From a virus: a stretch of 64,000 nucleotides of DNA. The notes under the pieces are model-generated. The model was not told the origin of the DNA, did not search any database, and saw only the letters and a program-made list of their open reading frames with translations. A program made the position numbers and the translations under genes. The stretch's first letter is position 1; every line of letters begins with the position of its first letter. The stretch covers positions 1-64,000 of the IMG/VR virus record IMGVR_UViG_3300050119_000104; one strand, 5' to 3'. Below, in pieces: positions 6,104 through 61,038 of this stretch.

Positions 6104-6527
6104 GGCCGTCGAACTTCCACCCGCGCAATGGCCACATCAATCGGAGATCGCGGACTGTCGAGAGTCGGCCTGAGCCACCATCCAATGTCGAACTTCAAAC
6201 TCGGTTAACAGTTCGTTTCCGCTCATGGTCCACAACCCGGCGGCAAGTGATGCGTGATGATGGTGGTGATGGTTGTGCCCATAGCCACTACCTGCGGCGC
6301 CCACCCAAGTGGAAGTCAATCAGGCCCTCGAACAACGGATCATGTGTAAGAACATCCGCCAGCGGCAGTGCTTCGCGCACGCACGGCGGCAATAGACACT
6401 CGTCATCGCAAGCTTCCCGATAGCTCATTTCAAACTCGTAATGCATCGAGAAATCAAAACGGGATCGGTTCGTCATCTGTGTACACGGGTCGCGGTTTGT
6501 TTTGATAAATAATCCAGTTGCGCATGG

Positions 6528-6770
6528 CGTGCTTATCCGGTTGACACCCACAAAGGGTGACACGATCCGGTATTCCTCTACAGGACGCAGAGCACTCTGC
6601 GCGGCTCCCGAAGGAACCTTATTCATGACCCTTTTCAGCCTTTTGAACTGCCCCAATCGGGGTATTGGTCATGGAAACTCGATCTTACGTGTGCTTTCAA
6701 TCAGTCGAGAGCGATTGTCAAAACGAAGAAAAGCAAAATTTCAGGTAGCTGTCAAGCGTTGGGTGTCATC
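6528..6770 (-). mobile_element. Divergent copy of the IS1595-type MITE/omega-RNA-like cassette (copy A)
   Basis: TIR CGTGCTTATCCGGTTGACACCCAC at 6528; shares GCGCAGAGTGCTCTGCGTCCTGTAGAGG and the CTTGACAGC..AATTTTGCTTTTC block with the other copies; far TIR degenerate. Confidence 0.85.
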
Positions 6771-6842
6771 GTTTGATATCTTCTTCGCTTCCCGGGAGCC
6801 TCTGATACGGCGGATGGCGGTTCTCATATAGCATCCTTCGAC

Positions 6843-7364
6843 TCACTCGAAGTGCACATCTTTTTCTTCGGTGTCCAGCCAAATTTCCTCACGGATAAGT
6901 TCGCAGGCTTTCTCGGACTTCCAGTAGTCGGCGACAATCTGACCGGTGGCCATAGGCTCGGCGAGCGCCTCGTACCAGTAGGCGACGCGCAAATGGCCCT
7001 TCGAAGATGCACGCTCGTTCTGCGCTTGTTGCAGCAGAAATTCTTTGGTGGCTTCGCCGAGCGGCAGACTGCCGATCATATATTTGGTGAATAGCTCGCG
7101 CGTGGCTTCGGCGGCTTTACGCAGCGACGATTTGGATCGCCGTACACTGCCGTATGTTTTGCCTTTGACAAGTGTCTTGCTGATAACGCGGTGACGGAGA
7201 GTGCGCCGCACAGCAGCGTTCGCTTTTGCGTGGATGTGTTCGAGGCCGACCGTAATCACGTAGATGGCGCGGTCTTTAGAGCCACGATAGATTTTCTCGG
7301 CAGCATTTCGGATGTCGATACTGTCGGCGATCACTTGTAGAACATCATCTTTCATCGAGGCCAT
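6843..7364 (-). CDS. Hypothetical protein directly downstream of the TIGR-like array
   Basis: 173-aa ORF with AAGGAAG RBS; starts about 20 nt after the last array repeat. Confidence 0.65.
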   Translation of the reverse strand: MASMKDDVLQVIADSIDIRNAAEKIYRGSKDRAIYVITVGLEHIHAKANAAVRRTLRHRVISKTLVKGKTYGSVRRSKSSLRKAAEATRELFTKYMIGSLPLGEATKEFLLQQAQNERASSKGHLRVAYWYEALAEPMATGQIVADYWKSEKACELIREEIWLDTEEKDVHFE

Positions 7365-7386
7365 GGGGAACTTCCTTTTTATCAGT

Positions 7387-7759
7387 CGGTACTCTCAACA
7401 TGCACGGCTCGCTCTCGAGCTTCGGTACTCTCTCAGCTTTCGGCTCGCTCCACGACTTCGGTACTCTCCGCGTTCTCGGCTCGCTCTCTGTTTTCGGTAC
7501 TCTCCGTGTTTTCGGCTCGCTCCACGACTTCGGTACTCTCCGCGGTCTCGGCTCGCTCCACGACTTCGGTACTCTCCGCGTTCACGGCTCGCTCTTTGTT
7601 CATCGGTACTCTCGGCGGGCTGCGGCTCGCTCTCGTGCCTCGGTACTCTCACTCCTAGACGGCTCGCTCCTGACTTCCGGTACTCTCCCTGTGCTCGGCT
7701 CGCTCACGGTCCTCGGTACTCTCTCGCGTCCCGGCTCGCTCTTGGTTCATCGGTACTCT
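7387..7759 (-). repeat. TIGR-like dual-repeat array (AGCGAGCCG / AGAGTACCG alternating, 9-10-nt spacers)
   Basis: On + strand, 11 exact CGGTACTCT and 10 exact CGGCTCGCT alternate strictly with 20 variable 9-10-nt spacers; unit 36-37 nt; directly downstream of a Nop/IS110-like gene. Confidence 0.85.
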
Positions 7760-7800
7760 CATAGACTGTCGGCTGTGAGATCGCGACCGGCGTAGTTTCG

Positions 7801-8171
7801 TTAGGCCGCCTTCTTAAGCTGACGACCGTAGTACGCCTTCTCGAATCCGGGGAACATATCCATGTTCGGGACGCGTATCTCATGTGCATGGCCAAGCACT
7901 GAGATTGCAAACGGCTTGGGAGGAACGACACCGAAGTACTGCCAATACCAAACAGCGTGCAGATGTGACAAGAAAATCTTGACCGCATAGCGTCCGGCCA
8001 TCTTGTCGAGGTACGCAGGCGGCACCTTACCTGCGGCAAGGAGCGCCTTGTTAGTCTTATCGGTGACACCCTTGTAGACCGCAGCCTTCTCAGCAAAGCC
8101 GCCGCGCTCGTTGCGCGCGACGTATATTTCTTTCTTTGCTCGATAGAGCTTCCCGTAGAAGCTATCGGGAT
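7801..8171 (-). pseudogene. C-terminal part of the Tas-like (Nop/IS110 C-terminal domain) protein, separated by the IS1595 insertion
   Basis: DPDSFYGKLY...AGRYAVKIFLSHLHAVW continues in frame with the N-terminal part once the IS and one ATCCCGAT copy are removed. Confidence 0.8.
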
Positions 8172-8211
8172 CATGCTTATCCGGTTTGAACATACATCCC
8201 CCAAAGGTTGA

Positions 8212-9255
8212 TTAGTCATGATGGGTTTCCATCGTCGGATGCTTCCAAGTTCCCTCGTAAATCCCGGCATAGGTCGGGCCTTCGCCGTTGGTCCCGATGC
8301 CGAGCAGCGAGCGGAAGGCGTTGAACGGGTAGAAGCGCCGGTTAAAGCGGAACGTGAACTCATTGAGGTAGGCTTGCAGATGTTGCGGCTCGACGCGCCC
8401 GTGGTGCGTGCCCTGCAACCACGCCTTGAGGTTCGAAAACACAAGGTGGACGATGGGCAGAAATTCCTCAGCGACTTCCGGGTTTCCGGCTTCGACAACC
8501 GGCAGATGGGCGTAGCCGCTCATGCCGAGCTTGTTATAGGCCGGTGCCGCGTCCGTGATGACTATCGCGCCCGGCTCGACGGCCTGTTCCACAAAGCCAA
8601 CCAGAGACTTAGCGGATCGGTCAGGAACGATTTCCAGCCGCAGGCGGCCAGCGTAGCGCCCGCCGCGTCGCATGGGCTTATCGCCCTTCTTAGCCGGACG
8701 GGTGCGAACCTCAACAGCGGCAGATACGATAGTTTTATCATCAGCATGCGGGCCACGCCCTTCACCGCGCAGCATACCGCCGATGTAGGTTTCATCAACT
8801 TCGACATGATCGCCGCGCGCCAGATTGCTACCTATCCGGTCGCGGCCTTGTCGGACCATGCCAGCGCGCAGCTTATGCAGGATTTGGAACGCGGTTTCGT
8901 ATCGGGTAAGGCCAAGCTGGCGCTGGAACTGCACGGCAGACATGCCGGGTGTCATGCTCGAAACGAGATAGGCCGCCCAAAACCATACCGTCAGCGGCGT
9001 GTGCGTGCGCTGCATCACGGTATCGACCGTCAGCGACGTTTGCTTGCGGCAGACGCGACACGTCAGGACGCTGGTACGGGTCGCCATGCGGAACGGCTCG
9101 CCTTTTTCCTCGCAATGCGGACATACGAAACCCTTGGGCCACTTCGCGCCCTCCAAGTATCTGGCGCAAGCGGCGTCATCCTTGAACAACCGCTGGAAAT
9201 CTCTGAGAGATTTGGGGAAAGGCAAGTGTTCCCATTGGAGAATGTCGGGGGCCAT
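8212..9255 (-). CDS. IS1595-family DDE transposase
   Basis: N-terminal Zn ribbon CPHC..CRVC; VEVDETYIGG, VITD, VHLVFSNLK (D-D-H-K pattern of the ISSod11 group), YLNEFTFRFNRR. Confidence 0.95.
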   Translation of the reverse strand: MAPDILQWEHLPFPKSLRDFQRLFKDDAACARYLEGAKWPKGFVCPHCEEKGEPFRMATRTSVLTCRVCRKQTSLTVDTVMQRTHTPLTVWFWAAYLVSSMTPGMSAVQFQRQLGLTRYETAFQILHKLRAGMVRQGRDRIGSNLARGDHVEVDETYIGGMLRGEGRGPHADDKTIVSAAVEVRTRPAKKGDKPMRRGGRYAGRLRLEIVPDRSAKSLVGFVEQAVEPGAIVITDAAPAYNKLGMSGYAHLPVVEAGNPEVAEEFLPIVHLVFSNLKAWLQGTHHGRVEPQHLQAYLNEFTFRFNRRFYPFNAFRSLLGIGTNGEGPTYAGIYEGTWKHPTMETHHD

Positions 9256-9262
9256 AGCTTGC

Positions 9263-9448
9263 TCAACCCCTTTCCGCTGCTGGGAAAATTCCGTGCGGCC
9301 CAGTTCCCTCGTCAGTGGGCTTGGGCTCTGGGCGCTTTGGGCCAGGGATTACTCGTCGGCCATCTTCCGAGTACGTCGCAAGACAGTAGGGGCAGGTCCG
9401 CACAATCCCGGCCCAAAACGAATGTGAGTGAGTGCAAAGCCGGGTCAT
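9263..9448 (-). CDS. IS cargo gene, small Cys/His-containing protein
   Basis: 61-aa ORF coupled by ATGA overlap to the upstream cargo gene. Confidence 0.45.
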   Translation of the reverse strand: MTRLCTHSHSFWAGIVRTCPYCLATYSEDGRRVIPGPKRPEPKPTDEGTGPHGIFPAAERG

Positions 9449-9819
9449 GCCCCGACCCCAAATTGGGCATTATCGACCTTTGCCGCGCGAACGGCGTCCG
9501 GGGTGCGCTGCGCGTGCCAGTTCTTATCGAAGTCTTCCATTGCGGCTTCTGGCGTCTCACCGAAACCGCAGACGCCGCTCATGATGTCGTCGCCATAGAG
9601 GGCGCACCATTGGCTCCCGTCCGCATAGACGGAAGGCCGAAACAGGACAGCCGGGCGCTGCATTTCCCATGTGACGGTCATGAACTGATCGCGGATCATT
9701 ACTTGGGAGTGCGAAATATCAAAGGCTTGGTGCGCCGCCTCGCGGACAACCTCGCCAATATTGCCGCCGCTGATCCGGCTGCGAACCGCGTCATAGATTG
9801 CTTGGTAATTGTCGCTCAT
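9445..9819 (-). CDS. IS cargo gene, phage-type hypothetical with HicB-like C-terminal motif
   Basis: WCALYGDDIMSGVCGFGETPEAAMEDF resembles the HicB N-terminal G-T-EEA motif. Confidence 0.55.
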   Translation of the reverse strand: MSDNYQAIYDAVRSRISGGNIGEVVREAAHQAFDISHSQVMIRDQFMTVTWEMQRPAVLFRPSVYADGSQWCALYGDDIMSGVCGFGETPEAAMEDFDKNWHAQRTPDAVRAAKVDNAQFGVGA

Positions 9820-10361
9820 GGCGCTACCCCAAATTCTGGCGTGCGAGGGTCAAGGTTGCGTTGCAGCGGGTCCATGCCGCCGAGTTTTTCGATAGCCGCA
9901 AGGCAAGCGCTAATCGCCTCGCAGTATCCCTTGGCGACAAGGTCTTGTTCCAGAAACGTGCCGCCGAGCGAGTTAATTTCATGCCACGCCTGATCAAGCG
10001 CCCAGTTAGCTTCCGCCTCGCTGTTGAGGCCGTTGCAAACGGCGGCTGCGATGGCAAGGTTTTCTTGCCTAGACAGTTCCCTAGCGCCAGTAGCCGCGAC
10101 ATCGACCCCGTCGCGGCTAACCCATCCCATTCCGTCATCGCCGCGCAATTCCCTAAAGCTGTATCCCTCTTTGTGGATCATGCGAGCCTCCCGATGCCGC
10201 GCGTGGCGATAAGGACGTTCGCCGCCGCGATGGGCGAGAAGCCCGACGCTAACAGGTGGGCTAGGCGTAATTGCTCTTCCGTGCGGAGGCGTGGCTGCTC
10301 GCCGCGCTTCGTGAGGGCGGTTTGTACTTTTACAAAGAAACTGTCGTTTTTCATGGGTCAT
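9816..10361 (-). CDS. IS cargo gene, hypothetical (true start may lie further downstream)
   Basis: 181-aa ORF overlapping the next cargo gene by ATGA. Confidence 0.5.
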   Translation of the reverse strand: MTHEKRQFLCKSTNRPHEARRAATPPHGRAITPSPPVSVGLLAHRGGERPYRHARHREARMIHKEGYSFRELRGDDGMGWVSRDGVDVAATGARELSRQENLAIAAAVCNGLNSEAEANWALDQAWHEINSLGGTFLEQDLVAKGYCEAISACLAAIEKLGGMDPLQRNLDPRTPEFGVAP

Positions 10362-10421
10362 CTCCTATCCAATGGCAGCAATCTATCAGAGGTATTTGTA
10401 TGTGTCAACCGGATAAGCATG

Positions 10422-10967
10422 ATCGGGATGATTGCTCGACCGTTTGAAACATTCCCGCGCGTGATGCGCGAGTTGTTTCATGTCGGCGCTGAATGGGCGC
10501 TTCTGGCCTTTTTCCCATTTCTGATCGGGGTTGAGACCAGAAAAGCTCCAAATATGTCCGACTGTCGGGCACTTCTCGATGTCGATGTGAGCAAGATAAC
10601 CGGCCGCGACCACCGGGCCAATGCCGATCTGCTCCATCATCCATCGACCAACAGAAGACACCTGAGCGTATTCGCCAAGAGCCTTGGCGATGTCCTTCTC
10701 AAGTCGGACCTGTTCGTCGATGTAGTGTTGAAGCAGGAAGGCAATTTGAGTCTTGCCTTCTACGGTCTCAGCATCATCACCGATTTCCGGCTGGATGTTT
10801 TCGACCGGCGTCTTATCGCCGATGTGGCGGGTCTGCATGTCGCCAGCTTTGCGCTTATCCTGCGCGTCGTGGTAGTTGAAAACCAGCGCCCGAACTTCAG
10901 GGGCTGTCATTTTGGTAGCAGTGAAAACTAGCTCAGACGAGAGCGGGGTTCGGGGAGTACGTTTCAT
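10422..10967 (-). pseudogene. N-terminal part of the Tas-like (TasA-type, Nop domain, no nuclease) protein
   Basis: Coiled-coil EVRALVFNYHDAQDKRK, GIGPVVAAG, HIWSFSGLNP, KRPFSADMK; no N-terminal DEDD RuvC; rejoined product about 302 aa. Confidence 0.8.
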
Positions 10968-11345
10968 GTGAGTGTCCTTTGTTTGCACATGGTTGGGTTC
11001 CTAACGGAGATGGATGGAAACATCAATCGAATAATTTTTGGTTTTATAGTTAAACGATCACGTCGCTTCTACGTTTCATGTCGGGTGGCTCCGCTCCTAT
11101 TTGTGATCGTCACACCAATCACCGCCGAAGGCCAGTTCACATAGGTCAGATAGTCAATGCACTGCTGCAATGTTCGCCGTGAGCCGGCCCACTTTCCAGC
11201 AACGTAAATGTCATGAAGAATCGTGTCACCCGTCTCAGGGTCGTGGAACGTCGTTGACTCCGCGCGCGAGGTTTTCGCGCTGATAGTTTTGCAGTGAGTA
11301 GGTCACCCCGGCGGCCCCGTCAAGTGCGGAGGCGCATGACTGGAG

Positions 11346-11470
<125 letters not shown>

Positions 11471-11759
11471 CGTGTGCGTGTGCGTCTTCGTCGCTTCCAT
11501 TTTCTTGATAGGGCATGGCGTGAGTTTTAGCAGCGGCGCATTATCGAACGTGATGGGTTTGGGGATATTCTCTTCGGGGCCGCACGCATGCGCGCCAACA
11601 ACGATGATGCCGAGAGCGAGCACAAGACCAAATAATCGACTCGCGTAGCGCTTGAAGCACGGCGGCGACTTCGCGCCAGCCGCGACCGAAAATAGCGGGT
11701 GACCGTGGAAGCGTTCCAGATACGCGCGAGCGATAGGCAGGGTGTTGGTCATGTACCGT

Positions 11760-11990
11760 TCACCCTCCGGCGGTCCGGGTCTGTTTCCCAAATCCAGCCG
11801 GTTCGGTGCCAATCTGCAGCTCGCCCGGCGGCAATCCAGTCGTCCATATTTTTGCCATCCCTCCTACTCGGATGACCGCATCCTTGAGATCGACGCGGTA
11901 GAGGGCGATCAAAGCTTTCTCAAGCTCTGGCGTCATCACCACTTTGGCAGCACCGCTATTGATCATTTTCTTTTTTACTCTTTCCGCCAC
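11760..11990 (-). CDS. Hypothetical protein
   Basis: 76-aa ORF with AAGAG RBS, downstream of a TTGACA site near 12025. Confidence 0.45.
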   Translation of the reverse strand: MAERVKKKMINSGAAKVVMTPELEKALIALYRVDLKDAVIRVGGMAKIWTTGLPPGELQIGTEPAGFGKQTRTAGG

Positions 11991-13768: not shown

Positions 13769-14021
13769 CATGCTTATCCGGTTGATGCCCAATGCTTGAC
13801 AGCCACCTGGAATTTTGCTTTTCTCCATTCCGACAATCGCCTCCGATTGATTGGGGGTATCTAAAGACCATGTTTCCGTCGTCTGTTCGCGCCGAAAGGT
13901 AATCCGAGAGGTAGAACGGCGATGAATAAGGTCCATTTCGGTGGACCGCGCAGAGTGCTCTGCGTCCTGTAGAGGAGAGCCGGGTTCGTGTCGCCCATTG
14001 GGCGTCAACCGGATAAGCACG
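13769..14021 (+). mobile_element. IS1595-type MITE/omega-RNA-like cassette (copy C, 253 bp)
   Basis: TIRs CATGCTTATCCGGTTGA(T)GCCCAATG / CATTGGGCGTCAACCGGATAAGCACG; no direct TSD. Confidence 0.92.
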
Positions 14022-15707: not shown

Positions 15708-16846
15708 AAGGCTTATCCGGTTGATACCCACAGGCGCTAAATCCAGATGATCTTGACCTACAAATATCGCATCAAGAACCGGAACGCCAAGTCGGCTTTG
15801 CGCCGCCACGCCTTTGCGGTCAATCAGGTGTGGAATTACTGCTGTGCGCAACAGCGCGATATCGAGTCGCGTTATCGGGCCGGAGCGCCGAAGCGCAAAT
15901 GGGCGTCACACTATGACTTGCAACGCCTCTGCAAAGGCGCGGGAGCGATGTTTGGCATTCACCAACAGACCATCGGCGGCGTGTGCCGAACTTTCGCGCA
16001 AGCCCGCGACAAGGCTCGGCACGCCCCGGCGTTCCGCAAGAGCTACGGCGTGAAACGGTCCTTGGGTTGGATACCGTTTGAGGGCCAAAGCCGCCAGATC
16101 AAAGACGGCGTTGTAACCTATCTCGGCAAACGCTTCTACCTTTGGGGCCTCAAGCGGCGGCCTATTCCCGCTACGGTCAAGGGCGGCGCGTTCGTAGAGG
16201 ATGCCTTGGGGCGTTGGTATGTGTGCCTCACGGTTGAGGTCGAACGCACCCCCGCAACCGGCAACAAGGCCATCGGCATCGATTTAGGACTGAAAAGCCT
16301 CGCCACGCTCAGTGATGGCCGCAAGATCGAGGCACCACAAATCTATCGCCGATATGAACAACAGCTTGCCGCGCTACAGCGCGCAGGAAAGCGGCGTCAT
16401 GCGAAGCGGTTGCACGCGAAGATCAAAGCGTGCAGGGCTGATTTTCTACATAAGATTTCGACGGAGCTTGCTGGTCAGAACGCGATCATCGCAGTGGGCA
16501 ATGTCAATGCACGCGCCTTGGCGTCCAAGTCAGTCCTTGATGCCGGGTGGTCCTCATTCCGAAAGATGCTCGCCTACAAGGCGACCGACTATCGGGAGGT
16601 GGACGAAAGGTTCACGACCCAAGATTGTTCGGCGTGCGGTGCACGCGGTGGCCCAAAAGGTCAAAAAGGTCTTGGAATAAGGCAATGGCAATGTTCATCC
16701 TGTGGCGAAAGCCATGACCGCGATGTGAACGCGGCTTTGAACATTCTCGCCATTGCCCGGCGCAGTGCTGCGCCGCCTGTTGAGGAATACCGGAGAGCGG
16801 CATGACACAGGATTTAGTGCCCGTGGGTGTCAACCGGATAAGCACG
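15708..16846 (+). mobile_element. Non-autonomous IS1595-TIR element carrying tnpB
   Basis: Left GCTTATCCGGTTGATACCCACAGGCGCTAAATC versus reverse complement of right end GCTTATCCGGTTGACACCCACGGGCACTAAATC (30/33 identical); no IS605 end hairpins. Confidence 0.85.
15747..16805 (+). CDS. tnpB: TnpB RNA-guided nuclease with rearranged RuvC-II
   Basis: GIDLGLK, AVGNV, VDERFTTQDCSAC, CSSCGESHDRDVNAALNI. Confidence 0.95.
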   Translation: MILTYKYRIKNRNAKSALRRHAFAVNQVWNYCCAQQRDIESRYRAGAPKRKWASHYDLQRLCKGAGAMFGIHQQTIGGVCRTFAQARDKARHAPAFRKSYGVKRSLGWIPFEGQSRQIKDGVVTYLGKRFYLWGLKRRPIPATVKGGAFVEDALGRWYVCLTVEVERTPATGNKAIGIDLGLKSLATLSDGRKIEAPQIYRRYEQQLAALQRAGKRRHAKRLHAKIKACRADFLHKISTELAGQNAIIAVGNVNARALASKSVLDAGWSSFRKMLAYKATDYREVDERFTTQDCSACGARGGPKGQKGLGIRQWQCSSCGESHDRDVNAALNILAIARRSAAPPVEEYRRAA

Positions 16847-59667: not shown

Positions 59668-61038
59668 ATGGCCATCGATGAGCCCTTCAAACCCGATACC
59701 AAGGCGTCGCCCCGACTTTACCGTCGGCATCAGCGTTACGCCAACTATAGTCGCTTGCGCTACGGCGCGCAGGAGCGCGCATGGTTGACTCAGCAAGCCG
59801 AGCGCTTGGAGTCGGCGGGCGCGGATCAGACGATTTTCGATTATTTGTACACCAACACGGCGGGCGAGATTAAGTTAGCGACCAACGTGTCGCACCTGAA
59901 CCCAGGTCGCGTTTAAAGTTTCGGTGCGCGGTTTGAAGGGGGACTTCCGGCCGCCCACTGAGATCGGCCGGGGTCGCAAGACCCCGGCCACGATTTTACG
60001 AGCTTCGCCATTCATGAGAATGGTGCATGTCCCCAAGCTGAACGAGGATTATCATGACTGACCAAGCCAAGTACCACGAGAAGATCAAGACTGCGCTCGC
60101 GCAACTGGACCACGACGATGCCGACTCATGGACCGAAGATGGTCTGCCTCGCACAGGCATCGTCCAGAAACTCTTAAACGATCAGACAATCCGGCGACAA
60201 GATATCGGCGATGCGTGGCCCGGTTTCGTCCGCAAGGTCTCAGTGACCGCGCCTATTGAACCAACTGCAACGGACCCAGGTCCGAAAGCGGATGGTGGCA
60301 CAACGTTGGTCGATCCCATTGAACCAATCGCGCCAGTCGATACGCGGCCGACCGAAGCTGAGTATCGAGCGAAGCTCAATCAGGATGTGGTCGATGCCGA
60401 GATGGCATATATCGCCAACAAGAAAGAGCTTGCGGTCTGCCATGGCCGCGAGCAGCCGCTCCGGTTGGAGATCGAGCGCACGAAAAAGGTTCGTGCCGCC
60501 GCGTTCCCACCGATGACCGCCGCGCAGAATATCAAGGAATATCTTGCCGGTGAGCATCAAAAGCGAATTGAAACTTCACGACTCAATCAGGTCGATGCGG
60601 CGATGGGGAAAGGCAACACCCTGGGTTGGAAGCGTCCTGTCCGTCCCATGATCGGGGTTGATGGCAACGTGGTTATGCCCATCGCGCGGGATAAAATCCG
60701 CCGGACCGGGTAATCTCCGGCCGGAATAAAAGGTCGGAACGATGAGCGCACTTCTCAATCCTCCGTACCGGCCGACCGCTGAAATGCAGGCGGGGCTTTA
60801 CTATGCCCGCCGTCGCAATCGGGCACGTCAAGCTCTCCAAAATTTGCCGTTATGGTCCGCCGATCTCTCGGTGGCTGATGGGGCGTATTATCAGTATGGC
60901 GGCAACGCCTATCAAGCGCTCGGGGCGGGGACAACCGGCTCGACTGCACCTATTGTTGATCGCGGTCAGCAGTCAGATGGAGCGGTCAATTGGGTATATG
61001 TTGATCCGCAAGTGCTCATCGGGCGGGTGCTGCCATGA
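59668..61038 (+). CDS. Head-associated hypothetical proteins (59668..59916, 60054..60713, 60742..61038)
   Basis: Follow the MCP; WTEDGLP motif in the second; carbohydrate-binding-like W...Y...G..YQ in the third. Confidence 0.6.

Follow-up and report, generated by a model that had tools for sequence, protein, structure and literature searches.

An interrupted tas gene and its array

The minus strand between positions 10967 and 7387 of the window (the whole 64,000-nt stretch analysed, taken from IMG/VR record IMGVR_UViG_3300050119_000104) runs from the start codon of a tas gene to the last repeat of an array, with an insertion sequence splitting the gene. TIGR-Tas systems, which have been described recently, consist of a small RNA-guided DNA-binding protein and an array of dual-spacer guides. 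The 5' part of the gene, here called tasA (10422..10967, minus strand; codons 1–182), encodes a short N-terminus, a coiled coil and the first half of a Nop-like domain. The 3' part (7801..8163, minus strand; 120 codons plus stop) encodes the second half and a C-terminal ...KPFAISVLGHAH... loop, both assignments coming from NCBIfam profile NF052498 and an alignment of homologues. As the sequence-only reading had it, the parts rejoin (10967..10422, 182 codons; 8163..7804, 120 codons) into a protein of 302 aa. In alignment with intact 290-aa homologues the halves abut exactly and seamlessly at ...NHPD|SFYGKLY..., with the 5' part corresponding to residues 1–170 of the intact proteins P0003, P0004 and P0005, and the 3' part to residues 171–290.

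The interrupting element (8172..10421, minus strand; 2,250 bp) has terminal inverted repeats that begin CATGCTTATCCGGTT and a perfect 8-bp target duplication, ATCGGGAT, at 8164–8171 and 10422–10429, which indicates a genuine insertion. Its 347-aa transposase (8212..9255, minus strand) matches Pfam DDE_Tnp_IS1595 (1.3e-34) with an N-terminal zinc ribbon (Zn_ribbon_IS1595, 1e-11), and scores 190 bits with NCBIfam NF033547 (cut-off 75). Together with the inverted repeats and the duplication, these features place the element in the IS1595 family. A passenger region (9445..10361, minus strand) holds small ORFs of 124 aa (9819..9445), up to 181 aa (10361..9816) and 58 aa (10354..10178), for which no Pfam or PHROG family was found. 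Homologous elements with the same termini and transposases 83–89% identical occur in Alphaproteobacteria MAGs. Several of these MAGs are assigned to Hyphomicrobiales-type genera, a hint at the host and nothing firmer. A search of 185,579 reference genomes with a 26-mer of the MITE end returned zero matches.

The insertion point lies between tasA codons 182 and 183, so full-length TasA cannot be made from this copy; no second or intact copy was found in the rest of the 117-kb record. The N-terminal frame continues 18 codons into the element to a stop at 10388..10386, giving a 200-aa fragment, and an ATG within the other end opens a 130-aa ORF covering the 3' fragment. Because the transposase gene is directed towards the 3' fragment and, beyond it, the array, and because of this ATG, the C-terminal fragment could be made.

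The array (7387..7774, minus strand) begins 27 nt 3' of tasA on the same strand. It opens with an edge repeat that is truncated at its 5' end, AGCCG (7770..7774, minus strand), read directly from the sequence. From 7759 down to 7387, an exact-motif search finds ten copies of the edge repeat AGCGAGCCG and eleven of the loop repeat AGAGTACCG in strict alternation, and the periods given by Tandem Repeats Finder are 36 and 72. The 11 units are 36–37 nt long, as first read, with the final one lacking spacer B and the closing edge repeat. Spacers flanked by full repeats measure 9 nt in 16 of 20 cases and 10 nt in the other four; a fifth 10-nt spacer directly follows the truncated AGCCG, so that the earlier count of five in 20 was essentially right. 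The terminal base of the spacer is G in all 20. This is the anatomy of a dual-repeat TIGR array, in which two distinct repeats of 8–12 nt (9 nt here) alternate, with spacers of some 9 nt between them, over several units beside a tas gene. The opening AGCCG is the counterpart of the 5' end, AGCCA, of the published mature tigRNAs of SpTasH and TaTasR.

Phage contig L001 matches the window at 72% identity (blastn) over tasA, the array and the gene directly downstream of it (6843..7364, minus strand; 173 aa), which is syntenic with the post-array gene of L001 and has no family in Pfam or PHROG. The intact relatives L001–L003 have both repeats as in the window and entirely different spacers, and their arrays terminate in a spacer followed by AGC. 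Relative to L001, the window array is about 65 nt short at its 3' end, where the last spacer B and the truncated AGC repeat are both absent, which suggests a 3' deletion. We found no terminator at this end on the minus strand and no Rfam match in 6500–11600. The array is also internally redundant to an unusual degree: one spacer B is common to three units, and the spacers A of these three are near-identical.

Assignment to the TasA subtype

The sequence-only reading described a nuclease-less Nop-type gene followed on the same strand by an array of about 11 units, and proposed comparing the protein with profiles and structures of the Tas family. Both comparisons agree with the sequence and the array anatomy in bearing that description out. 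Against NF052498 (TIGR_Tas_endo), whose cut-off is 100 bits, the N half by itself reaches 104 over profile positions 2–151, and the C half continues directly at positions 152–214. The intact homologue P0004, 75–79% identical to the window halves, scores 152 bits. In phmmer searches the 5' part matches TasR 9mty and TasH, and a profile built from 68 homologues recovers TasR 9mty (1e-26), TasH (6e-16) and IS621 (4e-5). Evidence on the fold comes from the predicted structure of P0004, the nearest intact homologue, rather than from the split protein of the window. With this AlphaFold model (pLDDT 89, pTM 0.87), TasH and TasR account for all ten of the best Foldseek matches (E 1e-7 to 1e-5, TM 0.54–0.72), with IS621 and ISCro4 next.

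In the 302-aa protein the coiled coil is preceded by no more than about 35 residues, and the profile alignments start at residue 122 of TasR and residue 91 of TasH, past their nuclease domains. No Pfam match to an HNH or RuvC nuclease domain was found in the window protein, and this absence assigns it to the TasA subtype. The IS110/IS621 bridge-RNA recombinases share the Nop-like RNA-binding domain but differ in carrying a DEDD/RuvC-like catalytic domain, absent here, and in using a single bridge RNA instead of a guide array. An IS110-family transposase was considered and ruled out, as the protein lacks the N-terminal DEDD catalytic domain and matches the family model NF033542 not over its full length but in the Nop-like part alone, at 20.6 bits where the cut-off is 140, and Pfam Transposase_20 stays below threshold (E 0.01).

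Repeat motifs and the processing dyad

Both window repeats read AG....CCG, with box D first and box C last, and the edge and loop repeats match in this respect. The sequence-only reading, which recovered the locus as a TIGR array with an interrupted nuclease-less Tas, went on to regard these motifs as atypical and proposed a variant subtype with altered RNA recognition. That second part is not supported when set against published systems. The SpTasH tigRNA, AGCCA-N9-AGACAACCA-N9-AGCG, implies an edge repeat AGCGAGCCA (Faure et al. 2025, PMC12045711), processed in experiments and one base from AGCGAGCCG, with a conserved base right before box D in both. The same work assigns SpTIGR an 'AG box D' and FpTIGR a 'CCN box C', and describes motifs that diverge yet covary between the two repeats; UG...CCA is the consensus of TasR and does not govern the whole family. 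Nor do 10-nt spacers mark a variant, since the founding paper's materials include spacers of up to 12 nt.

Two characterised systems are closest to the window. SpTIGR-TasH of Salicola phage CGphi29 (PMC12045711; PDB 9W03 and others) is likewise phage-borne and dual-repeat, with 36-nt units, an AG box D and a homologous Nop-like domain (the profile match and best fold matches given above), and its His296 is kept in the window. It differs in having an HNH domain, in a box C that ends in A rather than G, in its loop repeat (AGACAACCA versus AGAGUACCG) and in Tyr289, which is Phe in the window; moreover, the window gene is interrupted. FpTIGR-TasA of Flavonifractor plautii, compared here by its published description, has a nuclease-less solo-Nop effector with a dual-repeat array downstream, as in the window. 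In its repeats, AGTGTACCN and AGTAACCCN, box D is AG and box C is CC followed by a third base that is free, and the protein binds 36-nt RNAs (Faure et al. 2025). It is bacterial rather than phage-borne, retains the Y/H dyad and is intact.

We surveyed 80 related phage loci, 75 of which have a candidate periodic array near tas. Among the 28 distinct arrays in which both repeats could be parsed, box C is CCG in both repeats in six and CCA in both in 20, and edge and loop repeats share its third base, where determinable in both, in 27 of these 28. Position 2 of box D covaries with position 1 of box C (G-C 48, A-U 9, U-A 3; four exceptions). Among these loci, having CCG in both repeats is a minority state, but one that recurs.

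The Y/H dyad of the C-terminal loop (Y289 and H296 in SpTasH) serves tigRNA processing and is reported to be conserved across dual-repeat systems. Its His is present in the window and invariant in 68/68 homologues, whereas Phe stands at the Tyr position in the window and in its nearest relatives (Phe in 18 of the 68 homologues, Tyr in 50; the nine closest all have Phe). Because Phe replaces the dyad Tyr, autonomous tigRNA processing is uncertain even for an intact form of the protein. The change touches autonomous processing and not family membership.

A subtype with a different readout of box C and host-RNase-dependent processing could draw on several of these observations: the CCG shared by both repeats of the window and its closest relatives, the conserved G before box D, the mixture of 9- and 10-nt spacers, and Phe for the catalytic Tyr. 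It could also point to TaTasR, which has Trp at the Tyr position and whose protein is required for RNA processing yet is not thought to be the cutter. Several protein columns (e.g. window residues 165, 233, 236 and 239) separate CCG from CCA arrays, but these are confounded by shared ancestry. A link between Phe and CCG was rejected, as the two are not coupled: CCG arrays have 6 Phe and 9 Tyr, and CCA arrays 3 Phe and 36 Tyr. Given also that characterised systems include examples of AG as box D, of CCN as box C, of a conserved base preceding box D and of longer spacers, we consider such a subtype unlikely. About equally doubtful is a broader proposal, in which the phage TasA lineage would form a mechanistically distinct dual-repeat branch (Phe for Tyr, CCG box C) with host-RNase maturation and a different reading of box C, and the redundancy would reflect array growth by unit duplication and point divergence instead of acquisition of foreign DNA.

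Activity, targets and significance

We conclude that the locus is very probably a dual-repeat TIGR-TasA system of a 117-kb soil phage, knocked out by a transposon. In the intact state, judging from published systems, tasA and the array would be transcribed from the minus strand. A TasA dimer would bind the precursor through the AG (box D) and CCG (box C) motifs carried by its two kinds of repeat, edge and loop, and the precursor would be cut within the edge repeat (AGCG|AGCCG) to give tigRNAs of 36–37 nt, AGCCG-spacerA-AGAGUACCG-spacerB-AGCG. The complex would then bind DNA sites composed of spacerA+revcomp(spacerB), one spacer per strand, and, because it has no nuclease domain, would block transcription without cutting. 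TasA has been described as an RNA-guided repressor, and MbTasA and dead TasR, which are nuclease-free, are guided to bind DNA by tigRNAs and act as transcriptional repressors (Xu et al. 2026, bioRxiv 10.64898/2026.09.09.750476); these assays concern orthologues other than the window clade, some with stem-loop arrays. By analogy, repression of this kind may be the activity of the intact form of the window locus. In the present genome, the IS1595-family element interrupts tasA in a loop of the Nop-like domain. The system is probably inactive here, and the array, intact save for its last unit, is most likely non-functional.

Continued activity in the phage could be envisaged in two ways. The record is a metagenome assembly, and hence the insertion may exist in only part of the phage population; or the 200-aa N-terminal and 130-aa C-terminal fragments might reassemble. 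Complementation of the latter sort is conceivable, since each fragment carries a start and a stop codon of its own, the split site maps to a loop that joins two predicted helices (about residues 165–171 of the P0004 model), reading from the transposase gene leads into the 3' fragment and then the array, and the array is mostly intact. Against this stand the perfect target duplication of a genuine insertion, the lack of an intact copy elsewhere in the record and the fact that a split Tas has not been described; the deleted last unit and unusually redundant units fit decay. We regard a working system as improbable, somewhat more so than a variant subtype. That the tract is not a guide-RNA array, but instead acts at the DNA level (as iterons or as sites for a protein), codes for a tandem repeat or is a degenerate CRISPR array, is very improbable: ORFs of 85–150 aa can be read through it on both strands and an 18-bp periodicity could suit DNA-binding sites too, but 36/37-nt units break any reading frame, relatives keep the repeats while the spacers differ completely, relatives carry the tract on the same strand as tas, with two end motifs that covary in Watson-Crick fashion as expected for RNA, the repeats are only 9 nt with neither cas genes nor Rfam matches, and the opening half-repeat is exactly that retained in mature tigRNAs.

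The field's stated reason for missing natural targets is that most loci lie on short contigs. Since this locus lies within a complete 117-kb phage genome, a whole-genome search for self-targets was possible, and its outcome was negative. The search used all 11 guides in both possible geometries, including the published spacerA+rc(spacerB), with up to 4 mismatches. Unit 7 alone gave a match at ≤2 mismatches (59979–59996), at a site in the GC-rich stem of a hairpin that resembles a terminator and follows a small ORF; one of the mismatches is at spacer A position 6, near the seed positions reported for TasR. A match as good arose in 5% of shuffled-spacer sets, and we take this one as chance. Guides of L001–L003 matched the window's phage genome at 3 mismatches only, in both geometries, no better than a shuffled background made from the window's own guides (mean 0.9 such matches per set), and were likewise rejected. 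Across IMG/VR, the 20-nt targets of units 1 and 5 had 0 exact matches. An exact scan with the degenerate 18-mer of units 6, 7 and 9 gave 6 matches in unrelated contexts and contigs, a count close to the rough chance expectation for an 18-mer in a collection this size, and these too were set aside. The target search that the sequence-only reading had proposed therefore yielded no convincing target in the phage genome or the IMG/VR scans.

In a family that already counts ~20,000 tas loci, with 6,685 annotated arrays, a further phage TIGR-TasA locus matters little in itself. It corrects the notion that there is something unusual in AG...CCG repeats and adds minor points: Phe for the processing Tyr, a truncated last unit and unusual redundancy within the array. 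It also provides a natural transposon knock-out of tasA, which recalls the IS1 insertions that appeared as escape mutants in a published plasmid-loss experiment.

The tasA gene and the element that splits it

The interrupted gene encodes a member of the Tas family. Its N half matches NCBIfam NF052498 ("TIGR-Tas system RNA-guided endonuclease") over positions 2-151 with 104 bits (cut-off 100), and its C half matches the adjoining positions 152-214. A profile of 68 homologues recovered TasR (9MTY; 1e-26), TasH (6e-16) and the recombinase IS621 (4e-5). From the same alignment, an AlphaFold model was made for P0004 in place of the split protein of the window; this intact homologue, the closest found on a long contig, is 75-79% identical to the window halves. 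The model has a pLDDT of 89, and its top ten PDB structure matches are all TasH/TasR complexes, followed by IS621 and ISCro4. The Nop fold on which the sequence-only reading had staked its proposal is thus predicted, as modelled for P0004. No nuclease domain was detected in the protein, and ~35 residues lie ahead of the coiled coil; the short N-terminus and lack of a nuclease domain identify it as TasA.

Precursor cleavage by SpTasH uses Y289 and H296 (PMC13421893), a dyad described in a 2026 preprint as conserved in dual-repeat systems. The H296 position is an invariant His in our alignment. At the Y289 position, TaTasR carries Trp and the window protein carries Phe, as do its nine nearest relatives (18 of 68 homologues overall have Phe here). 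Phe at this position does not track a CCG box C.

On the minus strand, the 5' and 3' sides of tasA appear as a 200-aa ORF (10988..10386) and a 130-aa ORF (8193..7801), with ~2.2 kb between them. The IS1595-family element (10421..8172, minus strand) has ends CATGCTTATCCGGTT..., an inverted repeat pairing 8164-8196 with 10397-10429, and a perfect 8-bp direct repeat on both sides (ATCGGGAT, plus strand). Its 347-aa transposase matches Pfam DDE_Tnp_IS1595 (1.3e-34), plus a zinc ribbon, and NCBIfam IS1595 (190 bits, cut-off 75); the nearest relatives, in Alphaproteobacteria MAGs, are 83-89% identical and sit on elements with the same termini. The element's further small ORFs gave no family match. 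When the element and one duplication copy are excised, codon 182 (...NHPD) meets SFYGKLY..., a junction that alignment shows to be identical in the intact ~290-aa homologues P0003, P0004 and P0005. The rejoined product is 302 aa, and its start codon at 10967 (MKRTPRTP) agrees with that of the homologues. No second tasA copy was found in the whole 117,459-bp genome.

Several features surround the split gene. Within the right terminal inverted repeat (TIR) of the element lies a sigma-70-like promoter directed into it (minus strand 10380-10408: TTGACA, 17 nt, TAGATT, with an upstream TG), near consensus at 10/12; its TTGACA belongs to a TIR common to the IS and to MITEs. The left end (8191-8198) provides an ATG at 8193 that follows GGGGGA and shares the reading frame of the 3' tasA fragment; the transposase stop codon (8212-8214) lies a short way upstream of it, so translation of the transposase transcript could yield a C-terminal TasA fragment of 130 aa. 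A perfect (TGA)x41.7 trinucleotide repeat occupies 11346-11470, some 380 bp upstream of tasA. It encodes a run of ~42 His in a 169-aa minus-strand ORF (11812..11303), or poly-Ser when read in a different frame, and may be either a contingency tract or an artefact of assembly.

The virus record is rated complete, the window being its first 64 kb, and encodes a terminase, portal, major head protein, tail fibre and primase. For a phage, its transposon load is unusually heavy. Ends of one IS1595-type TIR occur 29 times (window 6528-32252, genome 93227-116344). At least nine TIR pairs form MITEs of 235-256 bp, five with perfect 8-bp duplications; MITEs lie at 13769, 14637, 15472, 26074, 29656 and 32011 in the window and at 95814 and 102018 past it. 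Two further pairs bound 1.14-kb elements (15708-16846; 93227-94362), and there are several solo ends.

Array anatomy and repeat motifs

An exact-motif search of the minus strand (7774-7387) found two 9-nt repeats in strict alternation, AGCGAGCCG ten times and AGAGTACCG eleven times, with a half-copy, AGCCG (7774..7770, minus strand), preceding the first full repeat by one spacer. Tandem Repeats Finder gave periodicities of 36 and 72. Spacers between full repeats are 9 nt in 16 of 20 cases and 10 nt in the other four; the opening spacer is 10 nt, and all spacers end in G. These counts bear out the 11 units of 36-37 nt described from sequence alone. By homology with SpTasH, AGCGAGCCG is assigned as the edge repeat and AGAGUACCG as the loop repeat, which fits the half-repeat that opens this array and the AGC half-repeat that closes those of L001-L003, related loci with intact genes. 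The mature guide is predicted to be AGCCG-spacerA-AGAGUACCG-spacerB-AGCG.

Relative to L001, the array is short by ~65 nt at its 3' end, so that the last loop repeat abuts the next gene's ribosome-binding site. L001 also has a strong hairpin (GGGTCGGCAG...CTGCCGACCC; L001:10873-10935) in the gap from the tasA stop codon to the array; the window, whose gap measures only 27 nt, lacks it. Units 6, 7 and 9 have spacer B AAGTCGTGG in common, and their spacers A differ at 1-2 positions. Spacer pairs within one mismatch (6/190) make up the top fraction among 54 arrays compared, a redundancy that fits unit duplication with divergence, or else recombinational decay.

The sequence-only reading took the AG...CCG repeats and 10-nt spacers to be atypical, measured against UG...CCA, which is the TasR consensus. 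The repeats are not atypical. The TaTasR tigRNA is AGCCA-N9-UGAAACCCA-N9-UGCG and that of SpTasH is AGCCA-N9-AGACAACCA-N9-AGCG (oligonucleotide table, Faure et al. 2025, PMC12045711). The ends of the latter give an SpTasH edge repeat of AGCGAGCCA, a single base different from AGCGAGCCG. The supplement to that paper describes an "AG box D" for SpTIGR, with a conserved base immediately ahead, and a "CCN box C" for FpTIGR, the FpTasA repeats being AGTGTACCN and AGTAACCCN; spacers reach 12 nt (main text).

Motif covariation among relatives

The close homologues in L001 (a 118-kb contig), L002 and L003 are intact and followed by arrays in which both repeats are the same as in the window and the spacers wholly different. 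Relatives are encoded on 566 IMG/VR stretches, of which we examined 80 (L093-L172) for arrays; in 75 of the 80, a candidate array with a period of ~36 lies no more than 3 kb from tas. Box motifs diverge, yet covary between both repeats (Faure et al. 2025, PMC12045711). Counted over distinct consensuses of the repeats, position 2 of box D and position 1 of box C were G-C in 48, A-U in nine and U-A in three, with four exceptions. This Watson-Crick covariation in phage TasA arrays (AG..CC, AA..TC, AT..AC) reproduces the published one. Almost all of these arrays have G ahead of box D.

For the 28 distinct arrays with both repeats parsed, the third box-C base in both repeats was A in 20, G in six and C in one, with one clearly discordant. 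CCG is thus a recurrent minority state. Alignment columns matching window residues 165, 233, 236 and 239 split CCG from CCA arrays, making these residues candidates for reading the third base of box C, with phylogeny as a confounder of the signal.

Expected function and status of the system

As inferred from the family, the array would be transcribed along with tasA, a TasA dimer would bind the motifs of boxes C and D, and the precursor would be cut within the edge repeat. The complex would then recognise spacerA+rc(spacerB), a geometry that the published target of TaTasR confirms (Faure et al. 2025, PMC12045711). Steric repression of transcription, shown for MbTasA (bioRxiv 10.64898/2026.09.09.750476), would be the outcome.

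The search for guide targets gave no convincing one in the genome of the phage itself, the related loci or IMG/VR. The best self-match of any guide, and the single one with two mismatches, is that of unit 7 at 59979-59996 (correct geometry). It is located in a terminator-like hairpin, within the stem, and this hairpin is downstream of a small ORF that comes after the major head gene; the match is no better than chance, as 5% of shuffled guide sets give such a hit.

The TIGR locus was correctly spotted from sequence, in that the Tas profile, the fold of P0004 and the array anatomy agree; the motif novelty claimed for it fails. The locus is an ordinary TIGR-TasA inactivated by a transposon, and the system in this genome is most likely dead.
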